A stretch of DNA of 35,895 nt from Folioceros fuciformis. Lineage: Eukaryota. The position numbers were made by a program, and so were the translations under genes. The stretch is from NCBI GenBank assembly GCA_049999805.1, contig JBNGIO010006223.1, positions 62,636 through 98,530 on the forward strand, written 5' to 3'. The notes under the pieces were generated by a model, which saw only the letters and a program-made list of their open reading frames with translations, had not been told where the DNA came from and searched no databases. Shown one piece after another: positions 8,219 through 32,429 of the stretch (positions are counted from its first letter, which is position 1; each line of letters opens with the position of its first letter).

Positions 8219-10949
8219 TCATAGAGGAATGACATAGACCCCATATGTCACTCCATAATGCTCGGGCTCTCGTCTATAACGTCCGGTCAGGCATATGAAG
8301 CTCCTTATCCGTTGTGTGCTGAACACAAAAGCCATGGTCGCTGTGAAGCCCAGAATGAAGCCAATACTCAGTGCTACATCTGACATAACCGGATCCGAGT
8401 GGTCAGATTCCTCTCCGAAATTGTGGCTATTATTTCCTTCAGTCCCTGACCCTCCTGATTTAATTGAGCAAAGCGGTAGTGGAGGACCACAGAGTCCAGC
8501 ATTTCCCGGCACAAAAGAAGAGCTGTCGAGACTACCAAATTGCCCGCCCGTGGGAATTGGGCCTGACAGATTATTCCACGAAACGTTGAACAAACTCATG
8601 AAATTTAGATTTGACAGGGTGGACGGAATGTTACCGGACAGCTGGTTGTGGCTCAAATCCAGGATCTCTATCATACGTAGCTGCCCTAACCTCTTCGGAA
8701 TTGGCCCATCAAGCTCGTTGTGGGAAAGGTCCAAAAATCTCATTCCAATGAGAACGCCAATTTCTTCTGGGATGGAACCCTGTAGATGGTTAGATGACAA
8801 GTCGAACGCTGTATTTGCCTTCAGGAGATACTGGAGTGGCTTCCCACTTAAGGGAAGACGTAGGTCTTCATATATAGTAAACTTTCCAACATCTTTGTCC
8901 ACCGTTGCATTTTGGAAACCTTTCAGGCCACTGAAAATCTCGATTGGAATGGTTCCAGTGAAAGAGTTTATTGGACAGCACCAGTGCCTGCAGCTGAGGC
9001 AACATTCCCAGCCAGTTCGGGACGGCCCCACTGAGATTGTTGCTTCCGAGATTCAACACGCGCAGATCCACAAGCTGCTGTAGCTCTAGGGGAATGCTTC
9101 CATTTAGCTGGTTCTCATGCATGTCTAAAATAACCAGGCCCGTGCAATTGCCCAAACTGGATGGTATACGACCAGACAAAGCATTTGATTGTATGATCAA
9201 AGTGCGTAGGCTCTTTGCGTTTCCTATACTCTCTGGAATGGGGCCTGGCATTGGGGTTGACACGACAAGCATTAGGAAGAGACTCTGAAGAGTCCCTGGA
9301 AGCAATATAATGATTAAATAAAGTTTGCAGTGTGCACGAACGGGGCAAGAGCAGATGTTACAGCACCTTCCACTTGGCTTTCTTGGAGAACGAACCTCTG
9401 CAGCGAACTCATATTTTCAAACAGCTTCCTTGGGATGAATCCGTATAGCCCAGAGGAAGACATCTCAAAATCTGTGAGGTGTGTCAACTTGGCAAAGTCT
9501 TCAGGAATGGAACCCTGTAGATTGCTTCCCCCGAGATGCAGTATTTGAAGGTCGGAGAGACTGACCAGGGAAGCCGGAAGAAGGCCTTCAAAGCTATTGT
9601 TGTTCAACTGGAGATTTTGCAACCTTGTCATGTTCCCAAACATATCGGGGATGGGTCCCGACAGGTTGTTATAGCTCAGATCCAACACTACAAGCTCCTG
9701 AAGCTGCTGAAAGCTGGTTGGTATGATACCAGTGAAGTTGTTCCTCGTAAGCCACAACTTGGTGAGTGGTAACCCTCCCAAGACGGAGGGCAGCATCCCA
9801 TTCAAATAGTTGTAGGGAACCTCTAATACGGATAGGCTCGATAGATTGGCGAACCAGTCAGGGATTGGTCCAGTGAAGTTGTTGCCGAAAAAGTGGAGCT
9901 CCGAAAGGGCGGTCATCTTGCTGATGCCTTCTGGCAGAGGCCCTGTGAACTCATTTACGCTTAACTCGAGAAACACCAAGATGACAAGCCTCTGTATGCT
10001 GGGCGGGATGCTGCCAGACAACCTGTTGGAGCGCAAATCCAAGTGTGTCAAAGAGGTAATATTGCTAACTGCTTCTAGGGTGATGGTTCCACTAGTGTTG
10101 AATGTGCTCTCTCCTAATGCTAGAAGGTATAACCTTGAAAGTCTGGACAATGACGTGGGGAATGGCCCACTTATGTTGTTCCACCCCAGATCCAGATACT
10201 CAAGGTTGCTGCAGTCGCCGATCTCGCTGGGAATCGGCCCTTCCAATCCACGGTGTTGAGATTGGTAGCCGTACCATTCTATGATTGCAAGATTTTTTAA
10301 CTGGCCAATGCTTGATGGAATCTGACCCCCGAGTTCACCGTTTCCTCCCAAGCTAAGTACTGTCAAGTTAGAACAATCCCCTATAGATGCAGGGAGGGAT
10401 CCGTTGAGCTGGTTGAATCCAAGTTCCAAGTACTGCAAGTTTTTGAGCATGCCAAGCTCGGCAGGAATGATCCCCGTCAGCTGGTTGTCCGACAATGAAA
10501 GCTGGACCACGTTCTGTAGGCCACCAATCGCAGGATGGATGGAACCGCTGAGCTGTTGGCCTGCCAACAACAAAGAAACCACTGTCCAAGTGCTGCCTGC
10601 CCAACCGCACTGGACACCGACCCAGTTGCAAGCAGCCCCAGCGTTGTCCTTTGTCCATTTCGCAAGGACACGTGATGCCTTGCTTAAAATCCAGCAGAAT
10701 GGACACCTCTGTTGCGTTCGAAGGCGCGTCATAGACATCTTGCAGCTTCCTTCCTTGGGTGGTGCGGTGAGCAGTGCAACAAGACGTATGAGCGTCGGCA
10801 AGTCTATTTGTGTGCTTGTGCGTGCCATTCCACCTACTTAGCTTGAACTGAGGTGACGACGCGAACGATGAAGCACAGACTCCTGGAGCGCCGACACCGA
10901 GATGCCGACACAAGATCCCCGCAACGAGAAGCAGCGGCAGCACCCCCAT
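8219..10949 (-). pseudogene. LRR receptor-like protein (signal peptide, LRRNT, ~20+ plant LRRs, island domain, TM helix, short tail) broken by three frame disruptions
   Basis: Signal peptide MGVLPLLLVAGILC; LRRNT EVSILLDFKQGIT/..LAKW..ACNWVGVQC; many LxxLxLxxNxLxGxIP repeats; GNAGLCGPPLPLC cap; TM VALSIGFILGFTATMAFVF; no kinase domain. The reading frame changes at ~10670, ~9296-9340 and ~8968. Confidence 0.85.
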
Positions 10950-11090: not shown

Positions 11091-12330
11091 CAGTCTCAAG
11101 CATCGGCTGTGCCTGAAATCCAATCTCTGCAGACGTTTCACGACGCAGAGAAGAACAGAGGCAGCATCTCGTGTGTGTGAAGTCGAATCCGTGCAGCCGA
11201 TGGTTCACAGTGATACGTTCTGCTGGTGACACGTCTCCGGCAGGAATCACAAGTCAATGAAGGTCTAGACGTTATCCAATCCCGGCATACGGAATGTTGG
11301 AAAAAGAGCTAAGACTTGCATACTACAGTAACTCAACAGCTTGTAATTTAATAGCAAATAACCCCCTTAGTTTCCTAAATAAAAAATATACAACATGCAT
11401 GCCCGGTAAACAAACCTTTCTGGCATGACATGCCAACACCTTTGTCGGCCCGATTCGGGCTGCCCTGCCGTGCCGTCTGGACTCACATTCCGTGCTGAAT
11501 AGGTCAACCGTGAGCAATGCCAATTCCTGTACATACTTAGCAGGCTAAGTGGCTGCAACATGGAGCGTTAGGGCGCGACGGGCCCCGAGCCCCAAGCCCC
11601 CAAGCGGGCCTGCCTGAAGGGGGAAATGGGAGCGCTCCAACAACGGCACTTGCAGCGGCAGCGGCATCGGCAGCGGCAACGGCCGCGGCCGCGCGTCTTC
11701 CAATAAAATTTGGTGTGCACGCTGGCAAGTCGTGAGACTCGCCAGTCAGGGCGCGCGATTCACACTTGCCATGTGGAACGACAACTTCACTGCAACACTG
11801 TAACAAGCACACGACAGCACTCGGACATGCAGCCAGCATTATATGCACGGATTCTTGGCTGCGCGGCCAGATTGGATACGGTCGCCTCCTCTTCATTCTG
11901 TGGATCTTCCGCATACACTCATGAATGCTCTCCTGTTCCCGCTTCCCCACGCCCTTCCAGCTCGGCGGCCATCCCCTCCGTCTTCTACCCGTGGTCACAA
12001 CCCCGGCTCCGACTCGTTACTCTCCTCCAAGCAAGCACTGTATGTATGTACACAGCAGCTCCAAGTCCAGCCCACGCCCACGCCCGCGCCCACGCCCACG
12101 CCCAGCCGCAGTTCGGACCGTCACTCTCCATTTAATTCGACTCTCAATTTATGTACGTCCCTTCGCCGTCCGGCACATCAGTCTCTGTCTCCCGCTTTTT
12201 ATATCCTGGGGTCCTTTTCTGTGCCGTGGTGTCGATTGGAGTGTCGCGGAGTGGAGTGCACCACCTACAACCCAGCTCCGCCGCCGTCTTCCGCATTCTG
12301 CCAATTTGCCACCTCCTACTTCTCCCCGCC

Positions 12331-15300
12331 ATGGAGTCCGCTTCGGGGGGCAGGCTCGACGCCGGCTCGCTCTCCGTGCGCCTCGCTCCCAGGAAGGGCT
12401 TCGGGAGCGCGGGCCAGCCCATCTACGTCGTCTCCAACTACTTCGTCGTCACATTTAAGCCCAAGCTCCTCTATCAGTACGACGTGAGCTCCAGCACCAC
12501 CACCCAATTCCACGCCCGCCTCTTTGCTCCAAATTGTCCTCGTTCTTGTTCTTTTAGGATGGCATCCCACCGCTGTATTCTTTTGCTCGCAATTGCGCTG
12601 CCCATCTGCGCACCAAGCTGCGCCGTCCTAATGCCAAGATTGCTCCCCCTCCTCCTCCTCCTGCTGTGCTGTTGCTGTTTCGTTCATGCCTTGCCTTTGC
12701 CGTAATTCTCCTGGCGCAGGTGAATATTACGCCCCAAGTCCCCAAAGGCCTGCAGAGAGCCGTGTTCGAAGAGCTGTGCAAGTTCGAGCAAGTGTTTCCC
12801 GACGGAATGCTGCCTGTTTACGACGGCCACAGAACTATTTATACGTCCCGGCCTCTCAAGGAGAAGGTGATCGATACCAAGGTGACGCTGCAGGAGCTGC
12901 AGTCCGGGGGGGGCCGAACGAGGAACCGGGATTTCGAGGTGGTGCTGCGGGCTTCGGCGCAGCCCGACCTCAGGCTGCTTCGCAGTTTTCTGTCCGGGAC
13001 AACGCCCGACCTGCCTTACGACTGCATCCAAGCTCTCGATGTTGTGCTCAAGGAGACGGCCACTCGTTGTGGGTAAGGCGGACCGGCCCCGCTCTCACTG
13101 CCTCACGCTTGCTGGATGCATGGGCTGCTCGCTCTCCTCCTCTGCTGCCACGGCTCCTTCGCTCTTCCTCAATTCTGTCTCCCCTCTTTGCGCAGCTTTC
13201 TGGCTGGGAAGCGTTCGTTTTTCGCCACATTGTTTGGCTCCACCAGCCTGGGAAATGGTGTGGAGGCTTGGAAGGGCTTTTATCAGTCTCTCAGGCCGGG
13301 GAATGACGAGCTGCTTCTCAATATAGGTGCGTGACTACTGCACTTTGCTTTCTCCAAATGTGTGTGGCTCGCCGGCTCGCCCGCTGCCTTGGCTCGGCTG
13401 GCTCATTTCCGCGGACTCTTGACATCTCGTGGCGTGCACAGATGTGTCTGCGCTGGCTGTATTAGAGGAGGTGCCGCTGCTCACGTTCTTGGAGAACGCG
13501 TGCAGAAAGGATGTGAGAGAATTGCACCGCGCCCTGCAAAGGCGCGATGCAGAAGGGGATCGCTTCCGTGTGCAAGTAGCGCCTTCTCTTGCTCTCCACT
13601 GCACCAACCCCCTTCATTGCCTCTGTCTTCCTTTGGACTAATGTGCCCCCCACCCTTCTTCGCAGATTAGGAAGAGCCTTAAGGGTCTTCGAGTAGCAAC
13701 CCTCCACGCGGCCAGACGCAAATATAAGATCCAAACCATCACGGATGAACCGCTGAGCGTCTTGAAGTCAGCAACTTACTCAAATTCCCCCGGTCCAAGG
13801 GAAACTTGTTTCACAGCTCTTTCAGGAGACTTGCATGTCGTAGGCTGATCACGGTTGTTGTCTGCATCAGATTTGATATGCAAGGAATTGAAATGACTGT
13901 GACCGACTATTTTGAGCAGAAGTACAATCAAAGGTTGGAGTTTCCTGGGTTTCCCGCCATTAACGCAGGCTCCAAGGAGAAGAAGAAGTACATCCCTTTC
14001 GAGGTACTTCATTTCGTTTTGACAAGGTTCGGGTGTCCTGTCTTGCCTTCAAAGGTTACTGAATTGAACAAATTTGGTGGCTCAGGTCTGTAAACTAGTT
14101 GGAGGTCAGCGCTTCATGAAGAAACTGGATGAGCAGCAGACGGACAAATTCAAGAATTTTACCATGGCCGCCCCTGGGAAGAGGCGTGCAGACTGCGAAA
14201 ATGTAAGCTCTTTGCGCCCGGCAGTTCCCCATAGAGTTCAATTTCACAACCGATAAGCACACGTCAGGGTTTTCAGAAGCATGTCCCTGTGTTCGTGTTC
14301 GTGCTACCAGTGGATGACTTGCATTCTGACTTGTGTGGTACATAGATGGCAAGGAACATTCACCACCAAGGTCGGAAATACGAGGAAGAGTTTGGCCTGG
14401 GTATGAATCCTGTAGGTGCCATAAAAGCAAGAGTTCTTCCAAAACCGAAGGTTATAAGCCTTTTCAGCTCGTCGCCATGGCTGACGCCGCTCTGGTGCAG
14501 AGATTTCTTTTCGTGAGTTCTCAAACATCCAGGGGGATTTTACAGGTGTGCTACAGCAATTCAGAGGCACAGATCAACCATGCGGGAGCGTGGAACCTAA
14601 GAAATACGGTATAGAGGTCTCCTGTTGCACTGTCAGCACGCTTGGGCTCTTTCTGGACTGCCTCACAATTGACAATGCATGCTGCCTTCCGAGAGGAATT
14701 CAGGTTCTCGTCGAAGGGTGCAAAATCAGCAACTGGACGTTGATCAATTTCGAGCCACGATTGGATGGTGGAGCTGTTCAGAATATTGTTGATACACTTC
14801 CCCGAGACTGCAAACGATATGGGGTGGTAAGTTCATGGTCCTGCTCGGCGCGGACTGCCTACAGTTGGATGACGTCTCCTAGTGAATCTCCTGTCACGTT
14901 TATGATTTCTCACATGTTCTGGGAATGTGTTAGGCTTTAAACCCATCTCCTGTAGTCGGCTGGGTCACCGAAAAGGGCCGAAATGTTGGAGCTGTCATTA
15001 AACATGTCTGGGATGAATGTCAGTCCAAGACCTCGAAGCACTTGGAGCTGTTGGTTGCGATCATGCCCTACTCAGGAGATAAAGAGATCTACAGTACGTC
15101 AGGAAATTTCTTATCTAAAAAATTGTGACAGCTTTCCTGCCTTGTCTGATTCCTGTTTTCTGGTGCTAGGATTAGACTGCGCTAATCACTGGATGGACAA
15201 CATTCTCTGTTCTGATCACTAGGTATTTTTCGTCCAGGATCTGTAAAGAAGATTTGTGAAATAGATTACGGTTTCCTATCTCAGTGCTGCAAGGCTGCAA

Positions 15301-17124
15301 ACATTGCAAATAGAAAGCCAAACTTTTTGGTTGGCTATCTGGCTAATGTGATCTTGAAGATAAATGCGAAGGTACACCTTCTGCACCTTATGGAATGGAA
15401 TGTTTTCATCTTGCAAATTGAGCGAGCTCTCATTACTGTTTTGCTTGCTTGCAGTGTGGGGGATTGAACTCTCTTCTGATGAATGAAAAGATGAAGCGAC
15501 TTCCTCGCATCTCTTCCAGCCCAACAGTCCTTATTGGCGCAGATGTATCACATCCACGCGTGGGGGATGACTCAAGTCCCTCAATTGGAGCTGTAAGTGA
15601 AGGCCAACTGCACTGTCACTGACTTGCCTTCGCACATCTTTTAGTTGCTACTCTTGTTGAGTTCCCTGTGCAGAGCTTTTTTTTTCCACTCCTTGTTGAT
15701 GTTGTCACAACCTGTTCACTGCAGGTTGTTGGGTCTGTGGACTGGCCACATTTTGCAAAATATGTGACGAAAGTTAGAGCACAGTCTCACCGCACAGAGG
15801 TGCTTGAAGATTTGTTCTGGGAGAAGACTGATGAACAAGGGAGGAAGCAAACGGGTGGTATTTTCAAGGACCTGCTGACCGTCTTCAAAGACAAGGTTTC
15901 CAAGAAGCCGGAGCAGATAATCTATTTCAGGTACGGTGCGCGATGTTTTCCTGCGTTTGTGATGAGATCATTCATATGGGAAGACGCCTCATTAGGCATG
16001 TCTGGCAGAGATGGTGTCAGTGAGGGCCAGTTTGACATTGTGCTGCGGGAGGAGTGCGATGCCCTCAGAAAGGTGGCTCTTTCCACTTTGTATGTGCAAG
16101 GACTTATTTGCATAAAAGTCTGCTCACTCCTGCTCACGCAGTATTGTACAGGCATGTGTCTCTCTAGGATGGGGAAGCCATGCGTCGGGCGCCCCTGGTG
16201 GGCCGGCTCAGAAAAAGTCTAAGATGGACACACCGAGGATCATCTTCATTGTTGTTCAAAAGAGGCATCATACTAGGTTGTTTCCATCGGAGAGCCGTGA
16301 TGATAAGCAGAATGTTCAGCCAGGTGATCTGTCTTGGGTTCCATTTCTTATTTACTGTATGTGAAGTTGATGTCAGTCAGTCACGCAGAAAGAGGTTCGG
16401 TGTGTCGGTCTAATCAGTGTTGTGGTTCAACATGGGCAGGCACCGTGGTGGATCGAACAATCTGCCAGCCCAATCATTTTGACTTCTTTCTTTGCAGTCA
16501 TGCTGGCCTTCAGGTGTGGTTGTTGGTTGTGACTCTGTGGCTGGATAGCGGACTTGAAGACGCCGCATACTTGCCACACTTTTGGTTGCAACGCGTTTGT
16601 GAAAAGTCGAAAACGCTGTGCAGGGAACGTCGAGGCCTGCACACTACCACATCTTACTCGATGAGATAGGGTTTTCTGCTGATGACATCCAGACTCTAGT
16701 GAACGAGTTGTGTTACCAGTAAGAGATGCTGAGAAATCTTGATTTGTCGCTGACCTTGCCTGTCTTTGGAACGCTGATCCAACCCAACCTTGTTCCGCGT
16801 CCGTGGGCATGCAGGTATGCTCGCTGTACCAAGGTGGTCTCCATTGGTAAGTGGTATTTTTTGAGAAAAATGTCGCTTGTCACTCGCAAGCTAACTCTCG
16901 TGTCTTGCACAGTTCCCGCGGTGTACTATGCTCACTTGGCTGCAAAACGAGCAAGAGATTGGATAGACTTTGAAGGATCTTGGGCCTCGGAAGGAGGATC
17001 TCACCAGGAGACCGGCAGTATTGTAAGCGCGGGTAGTGGAAGCGGGCGTGTGCGTGGAGCCTGCACCGTTAAACCCTTGCCCCAGATCCATGAAAGAATC
17101 ACGAAATCCATGTATTATATTTAA
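12331..17124 (+). CDS. AGO: Argonaute A (N, L1, PAZ, L2, MID, PIWI), 20 exons, intact, DEDH tetrad
   Basis: All exons join in frame at GT-AG sites: [155 protein letters not shown]. Confidence 0.97.
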
Positions 17125-17897
17125 GGCCGTCAAGTCTGAGGGAGCAATACGGTCCACGGGATTCATTGCGTTAAGGAATCCTGGACGCATAAACATTTCC
17201 CAAGTGATTGGCCGAGATTCTGATGGAGCGATCGCGCCAAGGCGTGTGGGACCATGTCCGGCACCATCTTCTGATGCTCACGTTCGCTTTCTGGGAATCG
17301 AGTTATCTTTTAACACCCTTGATACCAAGTATGCCCGACTTTGTGAGTGGATACCGCTGGTACATCTACGTATATTTATTAACTTGCAGATGCCCACAGA
17401 ATATATGCGGTCTTTCAGCAAACCAGCAGCACAGGCACTGTGCATACATACACATCATACACCAGTCACCCAGCTCAAAGTCTAATAGCGACCATGAAAT
17501 GCACGTCACACATGGGACAGCAGCCAGGGGAATGCAGCATGTTTCAGAACGGGTAAGCACCGTAAGCAGACACATTGCATTTGTAGCTCATCAGGACTTG
17601 TAACTTCAACTGGACCTACAACATCTCTTCCGACAGTGGTCGACATCCTGCGTTCAGCTACGTCTACTCAGCGTTTGCACTCGTAGCGCCGATGTGGAAT
17701 TTACTCTCCAATTCCGAGTACAAAAGAAAATTCAAGAACCGAAAATTATGTCACTTCTGATAAGAAAGAGCGTGTTGCGTGCTCTCGCGCACTTGCACAC
17801 ACCTCTCTCTTCCCCTTCCCGAGGAGCCTAACCTCTACAGTCCACATACTATATTATGTAGATACTATCACGAGACCAGTGGCCTCAATACCTGCTC

Positions 17898-20800
17898 CTA
17901 AATGAAATACATATGTCGTTTCAGTTTCTCGTTGATCACAGGCAGTGGCCGTACGGGTCCCAGCGCCCCACGAGCTCGTGCGGAGCGGCTTGAGTTGCTT
18001 CCCACATTACTGTCTACATCAGGTCGTGAACTCCCTCCGTCAGATAGGGCATCATAGTCGATCCAAATCCGAGCTCGGGTCGCAGCGAGATGCGCATAAT
18101 AGCAGGCTGGTACTGCACATGCGTCTCACATGGATTACTAGTCTTACAATCAGGTGGCGATTCACATTACAAAGTTATGCATGGATTTTGCACTCACAAC
18201 AAGTGACCATAAGTACTTACCAATGGACACGGCTCTTGGACAGCGAGCATAGCTGCCACAACCACAACGAACGTGTGAGAAGGTACATCATAGTTACATG
18301 AATTATAGTAGAAATGTGTGCCTAATTTAGTCACTTACTTGTGGCAAAGGTCGTTGGTGAGTTTCTGGATTTGGTCAGCAGAAAACGAATTCTCGTCGTG
18401 GACAACATGATAATGTGCAGGCCTGCTTGTCCCCTACAGGAATTGTGATGTGGATCACTATTTAGTAGCTCATTACTCTGAACGCGCAAAGAAATAATGA
18501 AAAAAACCAATATTGCTACAACCTGAATCCCCAAATGGCTGCAAAGAAAGAAGTCAAACTGGGTGGGATGGCAGATTACAGAATCCACGACAGTTCCTGT
18601 ACACACATAGACAGCTTCAAAATGATAACAACAAAATCAACAGGCTAGCTAGCTGACAAAACTAGCCAGACGACCCAACCTGGAAAAATGTTCCCCGTTT
18701 TTTGGGTTTTTCGGCGATCCCTTGGAAACAGACGAGTATGGTGTTGTTTCTGAACGACAATGAAGGTTATCTTGGGAGTAATGTCATTCTCCGATGCGCG
18801 TTGCTTCTTAGGAGCTGGCTCCTCTTGTCCAGGTTGTTGAACCCAGCCAAGAGCCTGGCATGCCTGTCAGTGGTTCACGACGCAGGGTTTAGCACAATTG
18901 CATTTCCATAAGGCCAAGCCCTTCTGAATGTACCCGAATGTACAGAGTGTGGTATACCGCTTTCACGGACTCCAGTTCTTGCTTCATGACAGCTTCAAAT
19001 TGTCCATCGCTTACTCCGTCTCTGCAAATCACCGTTCAAGTCCTGCAAAAGCTGATCGACAATTTCCAGGCACAAAATGGATTGTATGCCAAACCTGTAG
19101 AAGAGTATTCTCTGTGGTCGTTTTCCTGTGTTCCTCGCAAATGATGCCAAGAGATCCCTGCCAACCCCCAAAAAACCAATGCTCATATTCAGCTTGTAGA
19201 TGTACTGACATGAGAAAGAATATTAGAACCACGCAGCAAAAGCTTCTTGGCCTGTATGAAGGACTCCGGGAAAGTGGTTTTGCAACAGAAACTGCGTTCA
19301 GGAGACAAACTTACATTACGATGCCTCCAGATTCCTTTTGCCCCTCGTCATTCACTCTTTCCCAATACAGGTCGTCTAGAATTTCAGTTCGATGGGCTTG
19401 GCTTCGTGTCAGAGTCTCATATCTGGAGAGATTCGGCCAGTCCATGCTGGCAACCACCTGCAGAACGAAGGAGGTCAGCACATGTCAATCTAGATACTAC
19501 ATTACAGGGATGTCGACTGTCGTATGAAAAAGACTGTGAAATGCGTACGTACCGCGGCGATGGACGGACTACGGTCGTCTCCAACTCTGGGATGCGACAC
19601 ATCAGCACCGATGACTATTGACGGGACATCAGACAACAAGGGAAGTGGTCTAGAATTCACGTCCACCAACAGTGCATTGTTTCCCCCTAGCTGCTTGGAC
19701 ATATTCAGAAATCGGTGAAATCGGATCAGTAAATAGGCTGGGCATGAGCAATACTAGTTCTGGAACAGAAAATCTGGATAGTCAGCTTGTTATCAAGCCA
19801 CGTCGTTTACCTTCATGTTGATCTTAAGGATAACGTTCTGGACGTACGCTGGAAGACATTTTTTAAGTGCCTCTCCAGATTTCAGACACTGCGTCATGAA
19901 TCCGAGCTCGACATCACAAAGCTTCTTGACCGCTCCTGAACGGCATTCCAACACTTTTTTGAACAGCGTTGAAAGATTTCGCCATACTATGACAGAAAAG
20001 TCTAGCTTCAGCGTTCTTAAAATTGGTGAACCAGTTCACAGGGACTTACCGTACATTGCCTTGTTCTCCATGGTGGTGGGCAGGATGCAGATCAACAGCT
20101 CCAAGTCTCTACCAGTTTTGTCTTTTGCTTCCTTGCAGATGTGGTGGATGGTTTTCTCAACGTTCCCCCTCCGGTCTGCTATCCAAGGGCAAGCCATCTT
20201 TGGATTGATATCCTGTACGCAACGACAATCAGTTAGGAAGCAGCTAGGTACCGTATCTTCCAAGCGGAACAACTAAAATCGAAGAGCACCCTTTCGCAAC
20301 ATACCAAGCCGTAAACGATGCAGTTTCTCACAAATGTCGAAATAAAGTGCTCTATTGCATTGTCACTAAGCTGTGCGGCGAAACTGATTAACGTCCACTG
20401 TTTGATGACGGAACTCCTGAACATCGTCTTTGCAACAGTAGCCATTATACAGATTTCAGAATCCTTGTTTCGCTAGGACCTACACTGTAAAGCGGTTTTA
20501 AAGATCAGGGAAGTTTTCAGATGGATGAACCGTACCTTCCCATTCATTTTCCACCAGCCCTCTTCAGGAAGAACTTCTTGCCGTTGTCCATATAGGATCT
20601 GGAACACATCCGTACAGAGAAGTTCAGACGTGGGGGACGTTCAGAAAGTTGGAAGGACCTATCTGACCGGACCTTGGGTGCAGGCAATATTCGTCCTGTG
20701 ATTTCGGCCATCCGACTGCTGACTCTAATACCGAACTCTTCGGCATAGGTGGCGCTGGCGTTTATGCTTCTCTTGGCAATCTGCATTTCAGGTGTCGAAC

Positions 20801-22904
20801 AAGTTAGGTGGGGCAAGATACAAAATAACAGGGAGCTATCCAAACTTACGTTGTTTGTCTCTTCCAATCTATCCGCTGGTCTCGAGCACGTCATCCTCAG
20901 CAAGGCATCAACCTGTGCTTCGTTGAGTTTCTTTGTGTGGCGCTGACCACGCACAATTCTGCACAGCTGTTCAAGGCCGTCGACTTGGTATTTGCATTGA
21001 CGTCTGCTCTAGACATCTGCATCGACTTTTGGGGCGCATCTGGTTTTGCAATATGGGGTAAGTATGCTCACCTCCATGGGTATGTACGTTGACTTCTCCT
21101 TTGTACCGACTTCAATAGCCGGCAGCCCAGCAAGGATGATGCCGTGATTATGGCGCTCTCTAAAATACTGAATGATACCGATTCTTGTTCCATTGTGATC
21201 GAACCTACAACGTTCACCAGAGACCAAAGAACAAACGCGATGTCATCCAAAGGGATACCGGGTTCCATAAACCCGTTGAGTCGTATGCGTATACAAAGCA
21301 GAACCTGTCCCGCGCGAAGCAACTTGAGAGAGTAAGTGAGGCTTACGACAGTTCGGAGAGGGGGACATTCGTGACGTTCTGGATTCGATATTTGCGTTTG
21401 GTTCCGTAGATGAGCTCAACTCGAACTCCTTTGAGGAGCTTCTTGATCTGTATGCACGTCAGATGTACAACATCAAGCGTGGAGCGTTCTTTTTGGCTGG
21501 GACGGAAAAATGGACAGCTCTCTGAATTGGGCTCCTACTTTCACTCGTGATGCGTCGCCACGACCATCAGGCCCTTGTAGCTCCTTGTTCATCTCGTTGA
21601 TATCAACTCTCAAAGCTTTTGCGATGTAGTCAGGCAAGAGATCTGGCTCCAGGAATGCGTTTGCGGAGATGTCTGCCATCCCCAGCGAAAGTCAGCTGGC
21701 TTATGTTACATGAAAGCTAACGTCATGCATTTCGATGATCTCATGCGTCATCACAAGGTAGCTCTCTGTTCCACCATGCACAGGCACCTAAGAGAAACTG
21801 AGAAACTGCCACCAAGATTAGTCACAGACAGTCGAGCAGGTAGGATGCAAGGACTCTCGTACCTATGTTGAGAATGAGCTTGCCGTTTTGTGCAGGCCGA
21901 ACCGACTGGTAAAAGCCTTTCCAAGCCATAACCCCGTTGCCAAGAGATTTGTTCCCAAAGCATTCATCAAAGAAGGACCTCCCGCCTGGCAAGAATCTGC
22001 ACATCAAAGTCAATCGAGCCGATGAGAATGAAAGAAAGCGGACAAGGAAGGGAAGTGTACAGAAGGTTCATGTCTAGAGTAAAATATGGGCAGATTCCGA
22101 CTTACCTTTTTGTTGCAGACTCACGTAGCACAATGTCTAGGGCTTGCAAGGCCTTCTGGGGAAGAATGGGAACGGTGCCCTCAAGAAAGGCTCGCAACTG
22201 AGCCAGATCGACCCTAGAAGCCTCCCTCAAAATCACGTGAAATGAGCGATTTTTCCTGCAACAGAGGAAATCGATGAACAAATAGTAGTGTGAACCCGGC
22301 CCCAAAGAACCGAACAGTGGAAAGAAGCAGTGAAGAACCTCAACACTACTTACCGGGTTCTGACGACCGGTCCATCGCTGTCGGTGTTTTCCGGCAACGT
22401 GATGTCGAGCTCAACTTGCTCAATGGGCAGAGGCTTAGCAGTATACAAACTCTTTTGTCCATCATAGGCGGGGAGGGCTCCACCCAGCTTCTCCATGCGG
22501 TACTCAGCCACCAGCGCAGTCATCACAGCTCGATTGAGCCCCCTTGGCACATCCGGGGAGATAGTAACCTGCAAGAATCGATATAGCATCCAACGTTGGT
22601 AGACGGACTAACTAGCCGGAAGCCAATTCGACGTGCCGCATCACTGAATCATCCTATGCGATAAGATGCTTACGTCGTAATGGTAGAGGAGCTTAGGAGT
22701 GAACTCGATGAGGTAATGATTCGCCAAAATTTTCACGGGATCTCCCACTGAGCCGTGATTCGGTCTCCTCGCCAGACTTGGTTTCGAGGCCGCCATGGAT
22801 CTGATATTCGGGCTGGAGGTGGTAGCAAAATCACCACGCGGTGTGTCTGGGCCCATTCGCTTCCTGGAGGCGAACCGCGGCGGGGAGGCCATAGTGGAAA
22901 GCAT
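17898..22904 (-). CDS. AGO: Argonaute B, 22 exons, intact, DEDH tetrad (ATG at 22904 or 22892)
   Basis: In-frame spliced exons: [156 protein letters not shown]. Confidence 0.97.
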
Positions 22905-24911: not shown

Positions 24912-25216
24912 GGTAGAAGAACTTTGCTTGTAGTTTAAGCAAGGTTATTACTATAGAACAGATGGTGTATAGAATAGTAACATGNNNNNNNNNNAGCAAG
25001 GTTATTACTATAGAACAGATGGTGTATAGAATAGTAACATGGTGACCCTCCGGTAGAAGAACTTTGCTTGTAGTTTAAGCAAGGTTATTACCATAGAATA
25101 GATAGTGTATAGAATAGTAACATGGTGACCCTCCGATAGAAGAACTTTGCTTGTAGTTTAAGCAAGGTTATTACTATAGAATAGATACTGTCTAGAATAG
25201 TAACACGGTGACCCTC
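24912..25216 (+). repeat. 83-bp tandem repeat (about 3.5-4 copies) spanning an assembly gap, probably within the copia LTR
   Basis: Unit ggtagaagaactttgcttgtagtttaagcaaggttatta..atagaatagtaacatggtgaccctcc; ggtgacc recurs at 25041, 25124 and 25207. Confidence 0.88.
24985..24994. other. Assembly gap (10 N)
   Basis: Run of n characters inside the 83-bp array. Confidence 0.99.
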
Positions 25217-25488: not shown

Positions 25489-27458
25489 CAAATGCTAACA
25501 ATGGAGAAGATCTCTAGAACATGGTATCAAAGCCATGTTCTAGAGCCTAAGTAGTTTTCTTTTGGCTAGTATAGTTGTGTACTCGTATGAACACCTCTTT
25601 TGCATAGTTCTTAGCATAGTGCTAGAAAGAACTCGTGTGCAAATTGTGAAGGTATTGATAGTATTCATTCTATAGCAAGAGGTTGAAATTCGAGAGGATA
25701 TAATAGATGGCGTCAACAAGCATGGAGACACGTTTCATTCAGACATGCTCGATGGAGAAGTTTGGAGACAAGAACTTCACACTATGGAAGTTAAAGATGA
25801 AGATGCTTCTCATTGACAGAGAAGTATGTAAATTCGTCAACAAGGGTCTCGAAGACACACCCACCGAAGGAGACCTTGATAAGGATGGACGAGCATTAGC
25901 TGCAATCCTTCTTAATGTGTCTGATGACATACTCTCTCAATTGAGTGAGTGTGCAACATCGAAGAAGGCATGGACTACCCTTTGCGATATGTATGAAAAA
26001 AGAAGTATGTTGAGTGAGATGTTTTTGGAGTAACAACTGTCCAACTTCAAGATGGTTGAAGCGGACACGATTCAACAGCACGTCAACAAGTTGAAGAACT
26101 TGGCCTTGAGATTTTTTAGCAAGGCTAGGTACAAGGTGTACATCCTTTATAGTACCTTTGGACTTTTTACTAAGTAGTGTTATCTTTATGACACCTTTCC
26201 CTTAAATCTCGTGTGATGTGTTATCACTAAGCGCTAATGTGTTATTACTAAGCGCCACCTTATGCCATGTTGGCATTTCTTTGTAGCTCGAGATCTAGGG
26301 TCGGTTGTAGGTAAAGTGTTGAGATGCTTCAGAGTCTAGGTATAGACTCTCATCCTTCCTTGATGAGCAATCTCCCACTATCTCTATTGTTGAAGCATAA
26401 AAGAGATTTTCATCCCGCTCACTTACTTGATTGGCTTGTGATTGTTTTCCCTTCTTCAAGTCAACCAATCTTGTCCTACAGTCTTTTGCATGATGGTTAG
26501 GTTTCTTACAGTAATGACAAGTACCCCATGTCTTTTTCTTTGTAACTTTCTCCTTTAATCCTTCATTGGAGTTGTCATGTGAGGTCTTCCCTTTGTGTTT
26601 TTCCTTTCCTTGAAAAAAGTACCGAGTCACCTTTGTATTCATTCTCGAATGCATTCACTAGCTTCTCTTGTAGAAGCAACCCAACCACCTCTTCTATTGT
26701 TGCTTGTTTATTACTTGAATGCATCGCCGCTGATGTCCTAAAAGACAACACAAACTACATGTACGCAGATGGTAAACTATTCAATAACAGCATAATAATC
26801 CTTCGTTTAGAAGGTTTGATGTCTATAGCTTGCATTTGATCAACCATGTTCTTCAACTTATTGACGTGCTGTTGAATTGTGTCCGATTCAACCATCTTGA
26901 AGTTGGACAGTTGTTACTCCAACAACATCTCACTCAACATACTTCTTTTTTCATATATATCGCAAAGGGTAGTCCATGCCTTCTTCGATGTTGCACACTC
27001 ACTCAATTGAGAGAGTATGTCATCAGACACATTAAGAAGGATTGCAGCTAATGCTCGTCCATCCTTATCAAGGTCTCCTTCGGTGGGTGTGTCTTCGAGA
27101 CCCTTGTTGACGAATTTACATACTTCTCTCTCAATGAGAAGCATCTTCATCTTTAACTTCCATAGTGTGAAGTTCTTGTCTCCAAACTTCTCCATCGAGC
27201 ATGTCTGAATGAAACGTGTCTCCATGCTTGTTGACGCCATCTATTATATCCTCTCGAATTTCAACCTCTTGCTATAGAATGAATACTATCAATACCTTCA
27301 CAATTTGCACACGAGTTCTTTCTAGCACTATGCTAAGAACTATGCAAAAGAGGTGTTCATACGAGTACACAACTATACTAGCCAAAAGAAAACTACTTAG
27401 GCTCTAGAACATGGCTTTGATACCATGTTCTAGAGATCTTCTCCATTGTTAGCATTTG
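25489..27458. repeat. Long inverted repeat: arms 25489-26103 and 26844-27458 (~615 bp each), ~740-bp spacer
   Basis: The arms are reverse complements with only about 7 mismatches seen by eye; the ORF track shows near-identical proteins on opposite strands. Confidence 0.95.
26295..27458 (-). mobile_element. Inverted second copy of the same copia element: PBS, gag, zinc knuckle, start of protease
   Basis: gag ATG at 27240, premature TAA at 26914, CHYCKKPNHHAKDC (CCHC knuckle) and YLDSEASQH (degenerate LDSGAS protease motif) in ORF 26295-26654. Confidence 0.88.
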
Positions 27459-29155: not shown

Positions 29156-31618
29156 CTAGAGCTGGTTAGCTACTTCAGTTACTACTTCCGTGATATCAGA
29201 ATACTGCCGTCTTCCCTTCAACAAATGCTTGGCGAAAGTCAAGGCCTTCCTCTCGCAGGAGGCTCTTCTATCCAAATTTTCAATCGACTCCAAATCCTCA
29301 ACGTGGGCAATGCCCACAATCCTCCTAATCATCTTAGCTGCAGCATATCCAAGAGTATCCTCCAGCAGGCTTGCAAAATACTGGCTCTGGACAAGTTTGC
29401 GTGACTCAGGAGTGTTGTAGATGTCCGGCGGGTAGGCATCCCCTGTATTGGAGTCCCAACTTGCATCCCACAGTGTCGTAAACTTCGTCACCAACAGAGT
29501 CCACGTCTCCTGGATGGTGTGCAATATCCACTTTTTGTATTCATCCCTACCACCGGGAGCAGAAGCATGACCATCCTGAGAGTAAAATGACAACAACATA
29601 TTTCCAATGAAAGCTCCCACGTCGAAGCCCATGGGCCCATAGAAGGCGAATTCCGGGTCAATGACCTGGGTGGAAGTCTGGGTGACCATGATGGAGCCAG
29701 TGTGCAGATCACCATGCACCCGGGCCTGCGGACTTGCAATGAACTTGTTTCTAAGGGAGGCAATCTCAGTCTTAACAGACAAGTCGCCTTGCAGAGCTGC
29801 AACATCATCATCCAGGTGAGGGGAGGTCCAGCGGTTGTGGATATGGGTCATGTAAGGGTCGGAGAAGATGACCTGTTCTGTAAGTCTGCACATTTCTACG
29901 TTCTCGCAGAACTGAGCGACAGCGGCCTTGTAGTCGAGAGTAGACAGGGCCAAAAGAGAGGAATGAAAAAGAGTTTGGGCTACAAACTCAGAGATATGCT
30001 CCGCCAGGAGAGGATAGACAGTCCCTGCAATGAGGCCCTTCCGTAGGATAATATGAGGCGGCTCCAAATAGCGCATCACAGTGAGAGCCATAGGGTGGTC
30101 GAAATAAAAGACTTGAGGCACATGCTGGGGTACAACTCGCGCTTGTTCTCTCAACGCTGTTACCTCAAAGTAGGCACGCTCAATTGTCATTTTCCACGAC
30201 TCCCCCACGCACCGCACATAAGGAAGCGCCTGCTTGAGTACAAACGAGCCTTCCGGACCCAACACGATGTAGACGAAATTGAGATTGCCATCTCCCACTT
30301 CCTTGATCCTCCATTCGTCAGGAGTGCCCCCAAGTCGAGCTGCGAGCTCCGGCACACCCTCCACGTAAGCACGCACCTTTTCCTCCTTGAGTGCCCTGAA
30401 CCCCTTACCCTTACCCTTACCGTCGCCATCCTGGTGCCCGTTAGCCACGACCTCCGGAGCGTCGTCATCGCCGGTAGGACCCGCATCATTGCCAGCAAGG
30501 AAGGACGGCACATCGAACACTTCAGAGCTGGAGTTCTTGGCGATAACCCCCTTGTCAGTGATGATCGCCGAGATAAACCTGGAAGGCGTCACATCAAAAG
30601 CCGGATTCCAAACCCCAATCCCAGGCGCAGCAACCTGGACTCCCGAGCCGCCCCCGGCATGTGTGAGCTCCCGCGGATCCCGCTCCTCGATAACAATCTC
30701 CTTCCCGGAGCGGATCCCGGTATCCAAAGATGTGACAGGAGCCGCGACATAAAAGGGAACTCCATGCACAAACGCGGAGAGCGCGAGACTGTAGGTGCCG
30801 ATCTTGTTGGCCGTGTCCCCGTTGGCGGCAACGCGGTCGGCTCCCACCACCACCGCATGCAGGCGGCCGGAGGCCAAGAGCGCGGCCGCCGCAGAGTCGG
30901 CGATAAGCACACCCGGGATCTTGTCATGCACCAGCTCGAAAGCCGTGAGCCTGGAGCCCTGGTTGAAGGGCCTGGTCTCGGTGCAGAAGACGGTGTCCAA
31001 GGCGCCCCTGGCATGCAGCGCCCTGACCACCCCGAGCGCAGTCCCGTACCCCGAGGTGGCCAAGCTCCCGGTGTTGCAGTGCGTGAGAAGGCGCAGCTTC
31101 CGGCTCCCCTTCTCCCCCTGTCCCGCTATCACCAGCTCCGCGCCGTGCCAGCCGATGGCCTTGTTGGCCGACACATCGTCGGCCAGCATCTGCTCCGCCG
31201 CCTGCACGTAGGCATGGAACACAGCGGCCGCGTCGCCTGTCCCCGCTGCTGCTGCGGCGTCCGAGACCACCTGCTTGAGCTTGGCAGCGGCATCCGCTAG
31301 GTTGACGGCCGTCGGGCGGCTGGAAAGGAGGTGATCGAGGCGGTCTGCGATGAAAGAAGCGGCCTGGGGGGCCGAGGACGGCACAGGCAGCGCCGTGAGC
31401 TCCACGGCGAGGGACAGGGCGGCGGCGATGGCGATCGCAGGCGCCCCCCGCACCACCATGTTCCGGATGGCGCGCCATCCGGCGGCCGAGTCTGGGACGT
31501 CTACAAACACCGTCTGCGCGGGCAACTTGGTCTGGTCCAAAAGCTGCAGCTGGCCGCGAGAGTAGCGGATGGCCTGCAGCCGTCCGCTCTCCTTCTCCTG
31601 CTCCACTGCTTCTACCAT
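29156..31618 (-). CDS. MTI1-MTK: Intronless bifunctional methylthioribose-1-phosphate isomerase (MTI1/MtnA) - 5-methylthioribose kinase (MTK/MtnK) fusion, 820 aa
   Basis: N-half (~31618-30491): [72 protein letters not shown]. Linker of ~30 aa (30490-30401). C-half (30400-29156): [57 protein letters not shown]. Confidence 0.96.
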
Positions 31619-32429
31619 GGCTCGCTGCTCGCCTTCTTCTCCCTTGTTCTCGACTCCCCGTCAAGTTCTTTTATCCTACACTACCTGGCCTACTTTCCTG
31701 CACGTCGTGTGGCTGCATTCAGTGAACCTGAAAGGTTCTCCTTCAGGAGACTCTGTACTTGCATACATCCATATAACGTGACCTCCGTAGATAGATAGGA
31801 TATTCCATTCTCTCTGAAGGACCCCGCCGGTACACGTGGAATACTACAGTACGTACGCGTGACCTTATTCATACAACTCCTTATTTCCTCACAACTCCCC
31901 GCTTGAATCTTTGGAAGGCAGCGGTCAGGCGTGACATGCCAAACTTTTTTCAGAAAATTATTTTCTATTGTACTTGCTTTTGCCATCATGACAATTCAAA
32001 ACAATTCAAAAACTGCCTTGCCTTCTTGGGCCCCCCCTTCCCATACTGCTGTTCGACTCCAGCCTCCTCTTGGCACTTCGTGTGGTGAAAGGCTCTCCCG
32101 CGACATTCCTCATCCATGAAGAATCATCTTGCAAGCAACAAAGCTTAATTGGAAATCTCCAGAGACACCATCAATACCCCCAGTCAATACACGACCAGCG
32201 TAGTGCGCTGGGACAAGGCATATAGGGGAAAGAGCGAGGGGAGCTGGATTCCATTTGGCCATAGAGGAGTAGCACCGAAGGAGGGGCAAATCCCGTGACG
32301 GCCACAGAAACCCGAATGATGCCCATGTTGCCGCACCCCCTGCTGGTTGGTGGAGTGGGCCTTCAGCTTGTAGAGCGAAATAGCCTTTGGAACCTCTGCG
32401 GAACTATGGTCGCCGCTTCGCACACTGGG

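Follow-up and report, generated by a model that had tools for sequence, protein, structure and literature searches.

Land-plant Argonautes (AGOs) include an AGO-like subclade, described from a hornwort, lycophytes, ferns and a gymnosperm, that has no angiosperm members (You et al. 2017, Genome Biol, PMC5569507; PMC7994812; PMC10671604). A review calls the cargo and function of this subclade unknown and treats them as an open problem (PMC10671604). Among better-described plant AGOs, Arabidopsis AGO1 (AtAGO1) has a nuclear localization signal (NLS; amino acids 2–6) and a nuclear export signal in its N-terminal extension (PMC9994745), and AGO4 is reported to expose an NLS upon loading with small interfering RNA (PMC10671604). 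We analysed a window of 35,895 nucleotides from the hornwort Folioceros fuciformis (contig JBNGIO010006223.1, positions 62,636 to 98,530), a eukaryotic, intron-rich stretch that contains two convergent AGO genes, AGO-A on the + strand and AGO-B on the − strand. We found that both genes encode an insertion in the PIWI domain, and that this insertion of 15–19 residues, which the data support well, defines a whole AGO subclade. The inserted loop carries an invariant Gly-Trp (GW) pair and a basic patch that may act as a nuclear import signal.

The insertion in AGO-A lies in exon 16 (16152..16323, +), whose product runs from the end of a PIWI helix (ACVSL) through the expanded loop into the following strand. 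The preceding intron ends in AG at 16150–16151 and GT follows 16323, and direct translation of 16152–16235 yields codons 1–28 of the exon (ACVSL...KMDTP). The Pfam Piwi profile covers only residues 21–58 of the exon (profile positions 180–217). MAFFT alignment and distance measurements placed the expanded loop at 16167..16232 (+) and gave it 22 residues, compared with 5 in canonical AGOs (E-P-N-Y-Q). An L-G-W island (16164..16172, +), consisting of a Leu and then the invariant Gly-Trp, spans the junction between helix and loop. Further along the loop is the NLS-like basic patch PAQKKSKMD (16203..16229, +), with its core KKSK at 16212–16223, and a Pro equivalent to human AGO2 P700 (16233..16235, +) follows the loop; this Pro is present in 15/15 sequences of the insertion-bearing clade described below and in 15/15 AGO1/5/10 sequences. 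The expanded loop of AGO-B (18777..18848, −) is built in the same way: it has 24 residues, with GW at 18843–18848 and PAPKKQR at 18798–18818.

To size the insertion, we measured the distance from RDGVSEGQF to the QK of VVQKRHH. This distance was 57 residues in AGO-A, 59 in AGO-B, 56 in a Nothoceros ortholog and 40 in Helianthus AGO1, which corresponds to insertions of +17, +19 and +16 residues relative to the canonical 40. A first-pass annotation of this DNA had proposed that AGO-A has extra sequence between the ACxSL helix and the next strand relative to canonical AGOs, and the alignment bears this out, with an insertion of 17 residues. HMMER searches against Protein Data Bank (PDB) sequences aligned exon 16 residues 24–49 to human AGO2 696–721 and residues 28–52 to Arabidopsis AGO10 826–850, leaving the first 23 residues of the exon without a counterpart in either protein. 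The closest protein to AGO-A, P0003, is a transcript product of the hornwort Nothoceros aenigmaticus that is 73.5% identical over 892 columns, and we used it as the query for a database survey in which the 8,000 best word-sharing candidates were scored and the 120 best hits were retained. The distance was 40 in 106 of these 120 hits, which were AGO1, AGO10 and MEL1-type proteins of angiosperms, mosses, liverworts, ferns and Selaginella. The insertion was present in 13 of the 120, from Nothoceros, Adiantum (two sequences), Ceratopteris, Cryptomeria, Taxus, Ginkgo, Wollemia, Selaginella and four transcript assemblies, and in no protein of a named angiosperm among these best hits. Seven of the 13 measured 55–59; the other six, of fern type, were missed by the regular expression, and their insertion is visible in the printed sequence. 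An older, partial Selaginella model (P0140) measured 41; 14 residues of the loop, the GW among them, are missing from it. The model appears to come from the same locus as P0145, which has the insertion, and was excluded from the set of insertion carriers as a duplicate; gene prediction can thus hide the loop, and the gap in P0140 may itself stem from the annotation. Argonautes of Closterium, a chytrid and a priapulid have a short loop as well. The plant AGO2/3/7 and AGO4/6/8/9 clades are not known to have a long loop here either. A phmmer search with the N-domain exon against 1.84 billion representative sequences returned 125 hits (best identity 41%), which contributed a further clade member (Wollemia P0068) as well as canonical comparators; among the matches listed, the Nothoceros protein was absent.

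We next placed the 15 insertion carriers (AGO-A, AGO-B and the 13 database proteins) in a tree with 28 canonical rows for comparison. The tree of 43 rows was built under LG+G4 in a quick IQ-TREE run, in which long branches were flagged, and was composed without any named AGO2/3/7 or AGO4/6/8/9 sequence; ten of the comparators were traced to Selaginella, a chytrid, a priapulid, Closterium, grasses and further contigs. All 15 carriers formed one clade (Shimodaira–Hasegawa-like approximate likelihood ratio test value of 100), both with and without the insert columns. Because the clade holds after these columns are removed, one gain of the insertion is enough. The clade comprises hornwort, Selaginella, fern and gymnosperm sequences and is set apart from AGO1/5/10. 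We considered the possibility that the insertion is a chance feature or a private quirk of one gene, and rejected it, as the insertion and its islands are common to the 15-sequence clade, AGO-B included.

The gene family and the AGO-like clade are already known, and the clade recovered here matches the published AGO-like subclade in composition, the comparison being one of composition and not of member sequences. The two agree in taxon range, full domain set, catalytic residues and position beside AGO1/5/10, and the window holds two such genes, just as Table S2 of PMC5569507 lists two AGO-like genes for Folioceros (F. fuciformis m14883 and m115433). They differ in how they are delimited: in the available parts of PMC5569507, PMC7994812 and PMC10671604 the subclade is defined by phylogeny only, whereas the clade described here is also defined by a loop signature. 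The accessible AGO-like literature yielded no description of the loop insertion, of the GW in it or of the basic patch, although some accounts of the clade may still cover them, and the term 'nuclear localization' is absent from the available text of PMC5569507.

The MAFFT alignment of the 43 AGOs showed that conservation within the loop is confined to short islands. The L, G, W, K, K/R and closing P columns are each invariant (15/15), and in every other loop column the commonest residue is found in at most 10 of the 15 sequences. The spacer between the islands evolves fast and is rich in Gly, Ala, Ser and Pro or is acidic. A K[KR]x[KR] motif starts in one and the same alignment column in 13/15 insertion carriers, compared with an expectation of 0.31 of 15 when each loop was shuffled 20,000 times; elsewhere in these proteins no position has the motif in more than 7/15, and at the loop column it is found in 0/28 canonical rows. 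The cores of AGO-A (KKSK) and AGO-B (KKQR) both fit the monopartite NLS consensus K(K/R)X(K/R), and LGW and PAxKK are kept in both proteins even though they are just 46% identical. The longer form P-x-x-K-[KR]-x-[KR] is present in 8/15 sequences, namely all three hornwort and all five gymnosperm members, with variants such as PARKKHKID in Nothoceros and PSQKRPR, PSSKKPR, PSHKKPR and PSSKRLR in gymnosperms. Conservation of this kind would be expected of a functional short linear motif.

The same pattern bears on the idea that the loop is a tolerated linker whose lysines would be used for modification (ubiquitin, acetyl or SUMO) and turnover, or for some other kind of sorting such as nucleolar targeting. 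The fast evolution of the spacer would suit a linker, and the homologous loop of human AGO2 is subject to modification, as hydroxylation of P700 affects stability and the nearby C691 is nitrosylated (PMC9262622). A plain linker, however, would leave unexplained why K-[KR] and G-W are conserved (15/15) from hornworts and lycophytes to ferns and gymnosperms and are retained in paralogs as divergent as AGO-A and AGO-B. We consider this explanation improbable.

To determine whether the loop is retained after splicing, we used contigs from two sequencing runs, X1 and X2. These contigs are without introns, and we guess that they derive from RNA, no run being on record as RNA. An X1 contig of 3,205 nucleotides matches the window without a difference; in it, 16072 is joined to 16152 and 16323 to 16440, with GT..AG borders and no joint within the loop exon. 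An X2 contig from a relative (about 90–93% alike) spans 16150–16320 with 18 substitutions and no gaps. The 12 of these 18 substitutions that were read by hand included four silent changes and seven replacements (A11G, A14T, P15T, G17E, S23P, R29K and S46L). The loop spacer and the x position of the motif account for five of these replacements, and none of the 12 differences affects G6, W7, K21, K22 or K24. Both contigs keep exon 16 whole, and the loop is therefore not spliced out in them, an outcome that the first-pass annotation had recognized as bearing on its proposal. Removal of the loop by splicing is thus ruled out for the contigs seen; contigs drop rare isoforms, and a minor isoform without the loop may exist.

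We examined the setting of the loop in AlphaFold2 models of two orthologs. In the Nothoceros P0003 model (mean predicted local distance difference test (pLDDT) score 86.6), a helix at 690–710 is followed by a segment without secondary structure (711–733) and a strand (734–742). Mean pLDDT in successive ten-residue blocks was 96, 75, 59 and 95, and the basic patch (722–730) lies in the block with a mean of 59. The Cryptomeria P0136 model (mean pLDDT 86.7) has the same arrangement, with a helix at 698–718, a loop at 719–744 and a strand at 745–753; its block means were 94, 65, 52 and 92, with the patch (736–739) in the block at 52. Over its full length, the P0003 model matched the Arabidopsis AGO10 structure 7sva (E = 1e-81, template modelling scores 0.80/0.90) and also human AGO structures. 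These models support a predicted flexible loop, which may be exposed as well. A flexible loop bearing Lys and Arg in an RNA-binding protein could in principle contact RNA (guide, target or flanking transcript) and tune binding or slicing. The next strand, VVQKRHH, is part of the conserved PIWI core and is invariant at Q, K and H in 43/43 rows, which would be in keeping with such a role. Canonical slicers, however, function with a 5-residue loop at this place, and we regard RNA contact as very improbable.

The basic island, in our best single reading, would be a classical monopartite NLS of the c-Myc type, a proposal that we hold tentatively and with confidence a little short of even. Importin-α would read the basic island, which would give AGO-like Argonautes a nuclear phase, and the loop would be anchored at its base by the Gly-Trp, on or within a neighbouring tryptophan pocket. 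The first-pass annotation had likened PAQKKSKMD to the c-Myc signal PAAKRVKLD, and the likeness holds up: the two share P1, A2, K4, K7 and D9, AGO-A having K for R5 and M for L8, and the AGO-A patch fits the consensus K(K/R)X(K/R) given for monopartite signals, of which the c-Myc signal is an example (PMC5288373), at the column that is conserved in 13/15 sequences. They differ in placement, as the AGO-like patch sits in a loop of a folded domain and not in a terminal tail. We favour the NLS reading because it fits the motif, the tolerant x position, the flexible setting and the missing N-terminal extension. The last of these is apparent from the number of residues ahead of the N domain, which is 18–33 in 9 of the 12 AGO-like rows with an uncut N-terminus (44 in AGO-B and 81 in Taxus), compared with 110–292 in the 15 named AGO1/5/10 rows. 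The gymnosperm variants PSQKRPR and PSSKRLR presumably also fit Kosugi's class-2 pattern. By analogy, the AGO1 and AGO4 signals are short basic elements that give an Argonaute a nuclear phase, and the AGO-like patch is a candidate for the same task. The AtAGO1 signal lies in the N-terminal extension, whereas the AGO-like candidate lies inside PIWI, in proteins with next to no such extension. This proposal predicts importin binding and nuclear import. Control by small-RNA loading, which the first-pass annotation suggested, would be a further step, and for such masking AGO4 offers only a precedent.

Several observations weigh against the NLS reading. Signals predicted from the monopartite consensus are unreliable: in Phytophthora sojae, 0/8 predicted monopartite signals sufficed for import (PMC5288373). 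The patch has only 3–4 basic residues, and acidic neighbours are frequent. Both Adiantum sequences (2/15) read KRQQ and fail the consensus, and the leading Pro is missing in the fern and Selaginella members. The structural models are those of orthologs that are 74% identical to AGO-A or less, rather than of AGO-A itself, and low pLDDT in the loop does not measure solvent exposure. Finally, a different role is suggested by a charge reversal, the position of AtAGO1 R834 being E or D in 13/15 members of the clade, and by the surface on which the loop sits.

This surface is where AGOs bind GW proteins. The Leu before the loop GW aligns with human AGO2 L694 and AtAGO1 L873, an assignment for which the 34-residue K839–L873 spacing was checked, and this Leu is a key residue of tryptophan pocket 1 (bioRxiv 10.1101/2025.10.18.683247). 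At the other end, phmmer paired exon residue 24 with AGO2 696, and residue 28 therefore pairs with AGO2 P700, a prolyl-hydroxylation site that lines tryptophan pocket 3 (PMC9262622). The insertion thus runs from the pocket-1 Leu to the pocket-3 Pro, and the tryptophan pockets that flank it belong to the PIWI exterior (PMC9262622). Within the clade, the equivalent of L873 is kept in 15/15 sequences, that of K839 is K/R in 12/15 and that of R867 is R/K in 14/15. The canonical loop Tyr, found in 15/15 AGO1/5/10 sequences, is found in 0/15 of the clade. Given the acidic residue at the R834 position and the loss of the loop Tyr, the surface around the pockets has been rebuilt. The corresponding loop of human AGO2 (695–700, C.L19 in the numbering of PMC12477606) is a homologous helix-to-strand loop with a conserved Pro and is a site of surface regulation; it has 5 residues with a conserved Tyr, whereas the AGO-like loop has 20–25 residues, has lost the Tyr and has gained the GW and the basic patch. 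In all 15 sequences the G-W comes directly after the helix end, and it opens the segment that is without secondary structure in the two ortholog models.

Because the loop lies in a segment that builds the exterior GW-binding pockets, a module for pocket or partner binding is a serious rival to an import signal. The invariant Trp would then act in cis on tryptophan pocket 1 or 3, by filling it or changing its shape, and the mobile basic patch would attract an acidic, Trp-bearing partner or compete with one. There is a parallel for such an arrangement in pocket 2 of plant AGOs, a GW pocket that is filled by a conserved Trp of the AGO itself (AtAGO10 W732, AtAGO1 W785; PMC12477606; bioRxiv 10.1101/2025.10.18.683247). 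That Trp belongs to another loop, is common to all plant AGOs and is kept in 15/15 members of the clade; the loop Trp, by contrast, is specific to AGO-like proteins and adjoins pockets 1 and 3. In addition, AtAGO1 R834 and R1045, which are situated around the pockets, are needed for function that depends on the intrinsically disordered region of SGS3 (bioRxiv 10.1101/2025.10.18.683247). A binding module would explain the invariant GW and the rebuilt surroundings of the pockets, which an NLS does not. However, a strict K-[KR] with a tolerant x resembles a linear motif that is read in a groove more than a diffuse patch of charge, and a role by charge alone would be weakened in part by the acidic residues of the loop. 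We rate this main rival as somewhat unlikely; it can also coexist with an NLS.

The import signal and the pocket-binding Trp could also be parts of one device. The insertion would then be a self-contained switch, in which the Gly-Trp plugs the protein's own pocket 1 or 3 and masks K[KR]x[KR] until loading, or competition by a GW protein, releases the loop, so that only programmed AGO-like complexes enter the nucleus. We consider this combined scheme quite unlikely. If true, it would place an import gate inside PIWI, in place of the N-terminal-extension signals of AGO1 and AGO4, and the AGO-like branch would be a nuclear small-RNA effector that was lost by angiosperms.

To model both genes, we combined stop-to-stop reading frames, tblastn with the full-length relative P0003, and exon chains based on homology and GT-AG rules. 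The AGO-A coding region (12331..17124, +) has 20 exons and encodes 899 amino acids, from MESASG to MYYI, followed by a stop. Six of its 3′ junctions (15592/15725, 15930/16009, 16072/16152, 16323/16440, 16513/16624 and 16846/16913) were confirmed by the X1 contig, and we infer the others. The X1 contig begins at 12047; within 12047–12483, an in-frame ATG (12151) precedes the MESASG start by 60 codons. The MESASG start aligns with the N-terminus of the Nothoceros protein, and the ATG at 12151 is a possible alternative start. AGO-B, the convergent paralog (17898..22904, −), was modelled by tblastn and a homology chain with 22 exons and 919 amino acids; nine of its 3′ junctions were confirmed by a second X1 contig record, and part of the N domain may be missing from the model. 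Its loop exon (18680..18863, −) is backed by translation, the X1 contig and the exon chain. The 44-residue N-terminus of AGO-B (22773–22904, −) has a small basic patch of its own, which AGO-A does not have. The stops of the two genes are 776 base pairs apart (17124–17901), and the X1 contigs end at 17345 and start at 17722, so that about 377 base pairs between the 3′ ends are uncovered.

The domain content of both proteins is that of a eukaryotic Argonaute of the AGO clade, with the order N, L1, PAZ, L2, MID and PIWI. In Pfam searches with P0003, ArgoN, ArgoL1, PAZ and Piwi scored above their cut-offs and ArgoL2 and ArgoMid fell short of theirs, and searches with the AGO-A exons found ArgoN (60.7 bits) and Piwi (33.6 bits). 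AGO-A and AGO-B each align to the whole length of P0003. At the columns of P0003 D600, E641, D686 and H837, both have a predicted catalytic D-E-D-H tetrad.

Other features of the window lie outside the AGO genes. A single frame of 834 amino acids at 29159–31660 (−) combines an IF-2B/MtnA-type isomerase domain (PF01008, E = 2e-68, amino acids 70–374) with an APH-type kinase domain (PF01636, E = 9.5e-13, amino acids 452–685), and looks like a fused methylthioribose-1-phosphate isomerase and kinase. It has no introns, compared with about 20 in each Argonaute gene of the same genome. A leucine-rich-repeat gene lies at 8222–10837 (−), where three frames match LRR_1, LRR_8 and LRR_14 with E values down to 1e-40, and a frame at 885–1442 (−) has a NUDIX hydrolase domain (PF00293, E = 4e-6). 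Opposite strands carry copia-type gag pieces (PF14223, E of about 6e-13 each), one at 25707–26030 (+) and one at 26917–27240 (−), and a gap of ten Ns (24985–24994) falls inside near-identical repeated frames.

The AGO-like proteins are the one major land-plant Argonaute branch without a known cargo, partner, location or function (PMC10671604). The insertion, with its invariant Trp and import-like patch at the docking surface for GW proteins, is the first sequence-level signature of this branch. Should the patch prove to be an NLS, these Argonautes would have an import signal inside PIWI rather than in an N-terminal extension. This would further point to a nuclear role of AGO-like proteins, for example in chromatin or co-transcriptional silencing, that flowering plants have dropped or passed to other AGOs.

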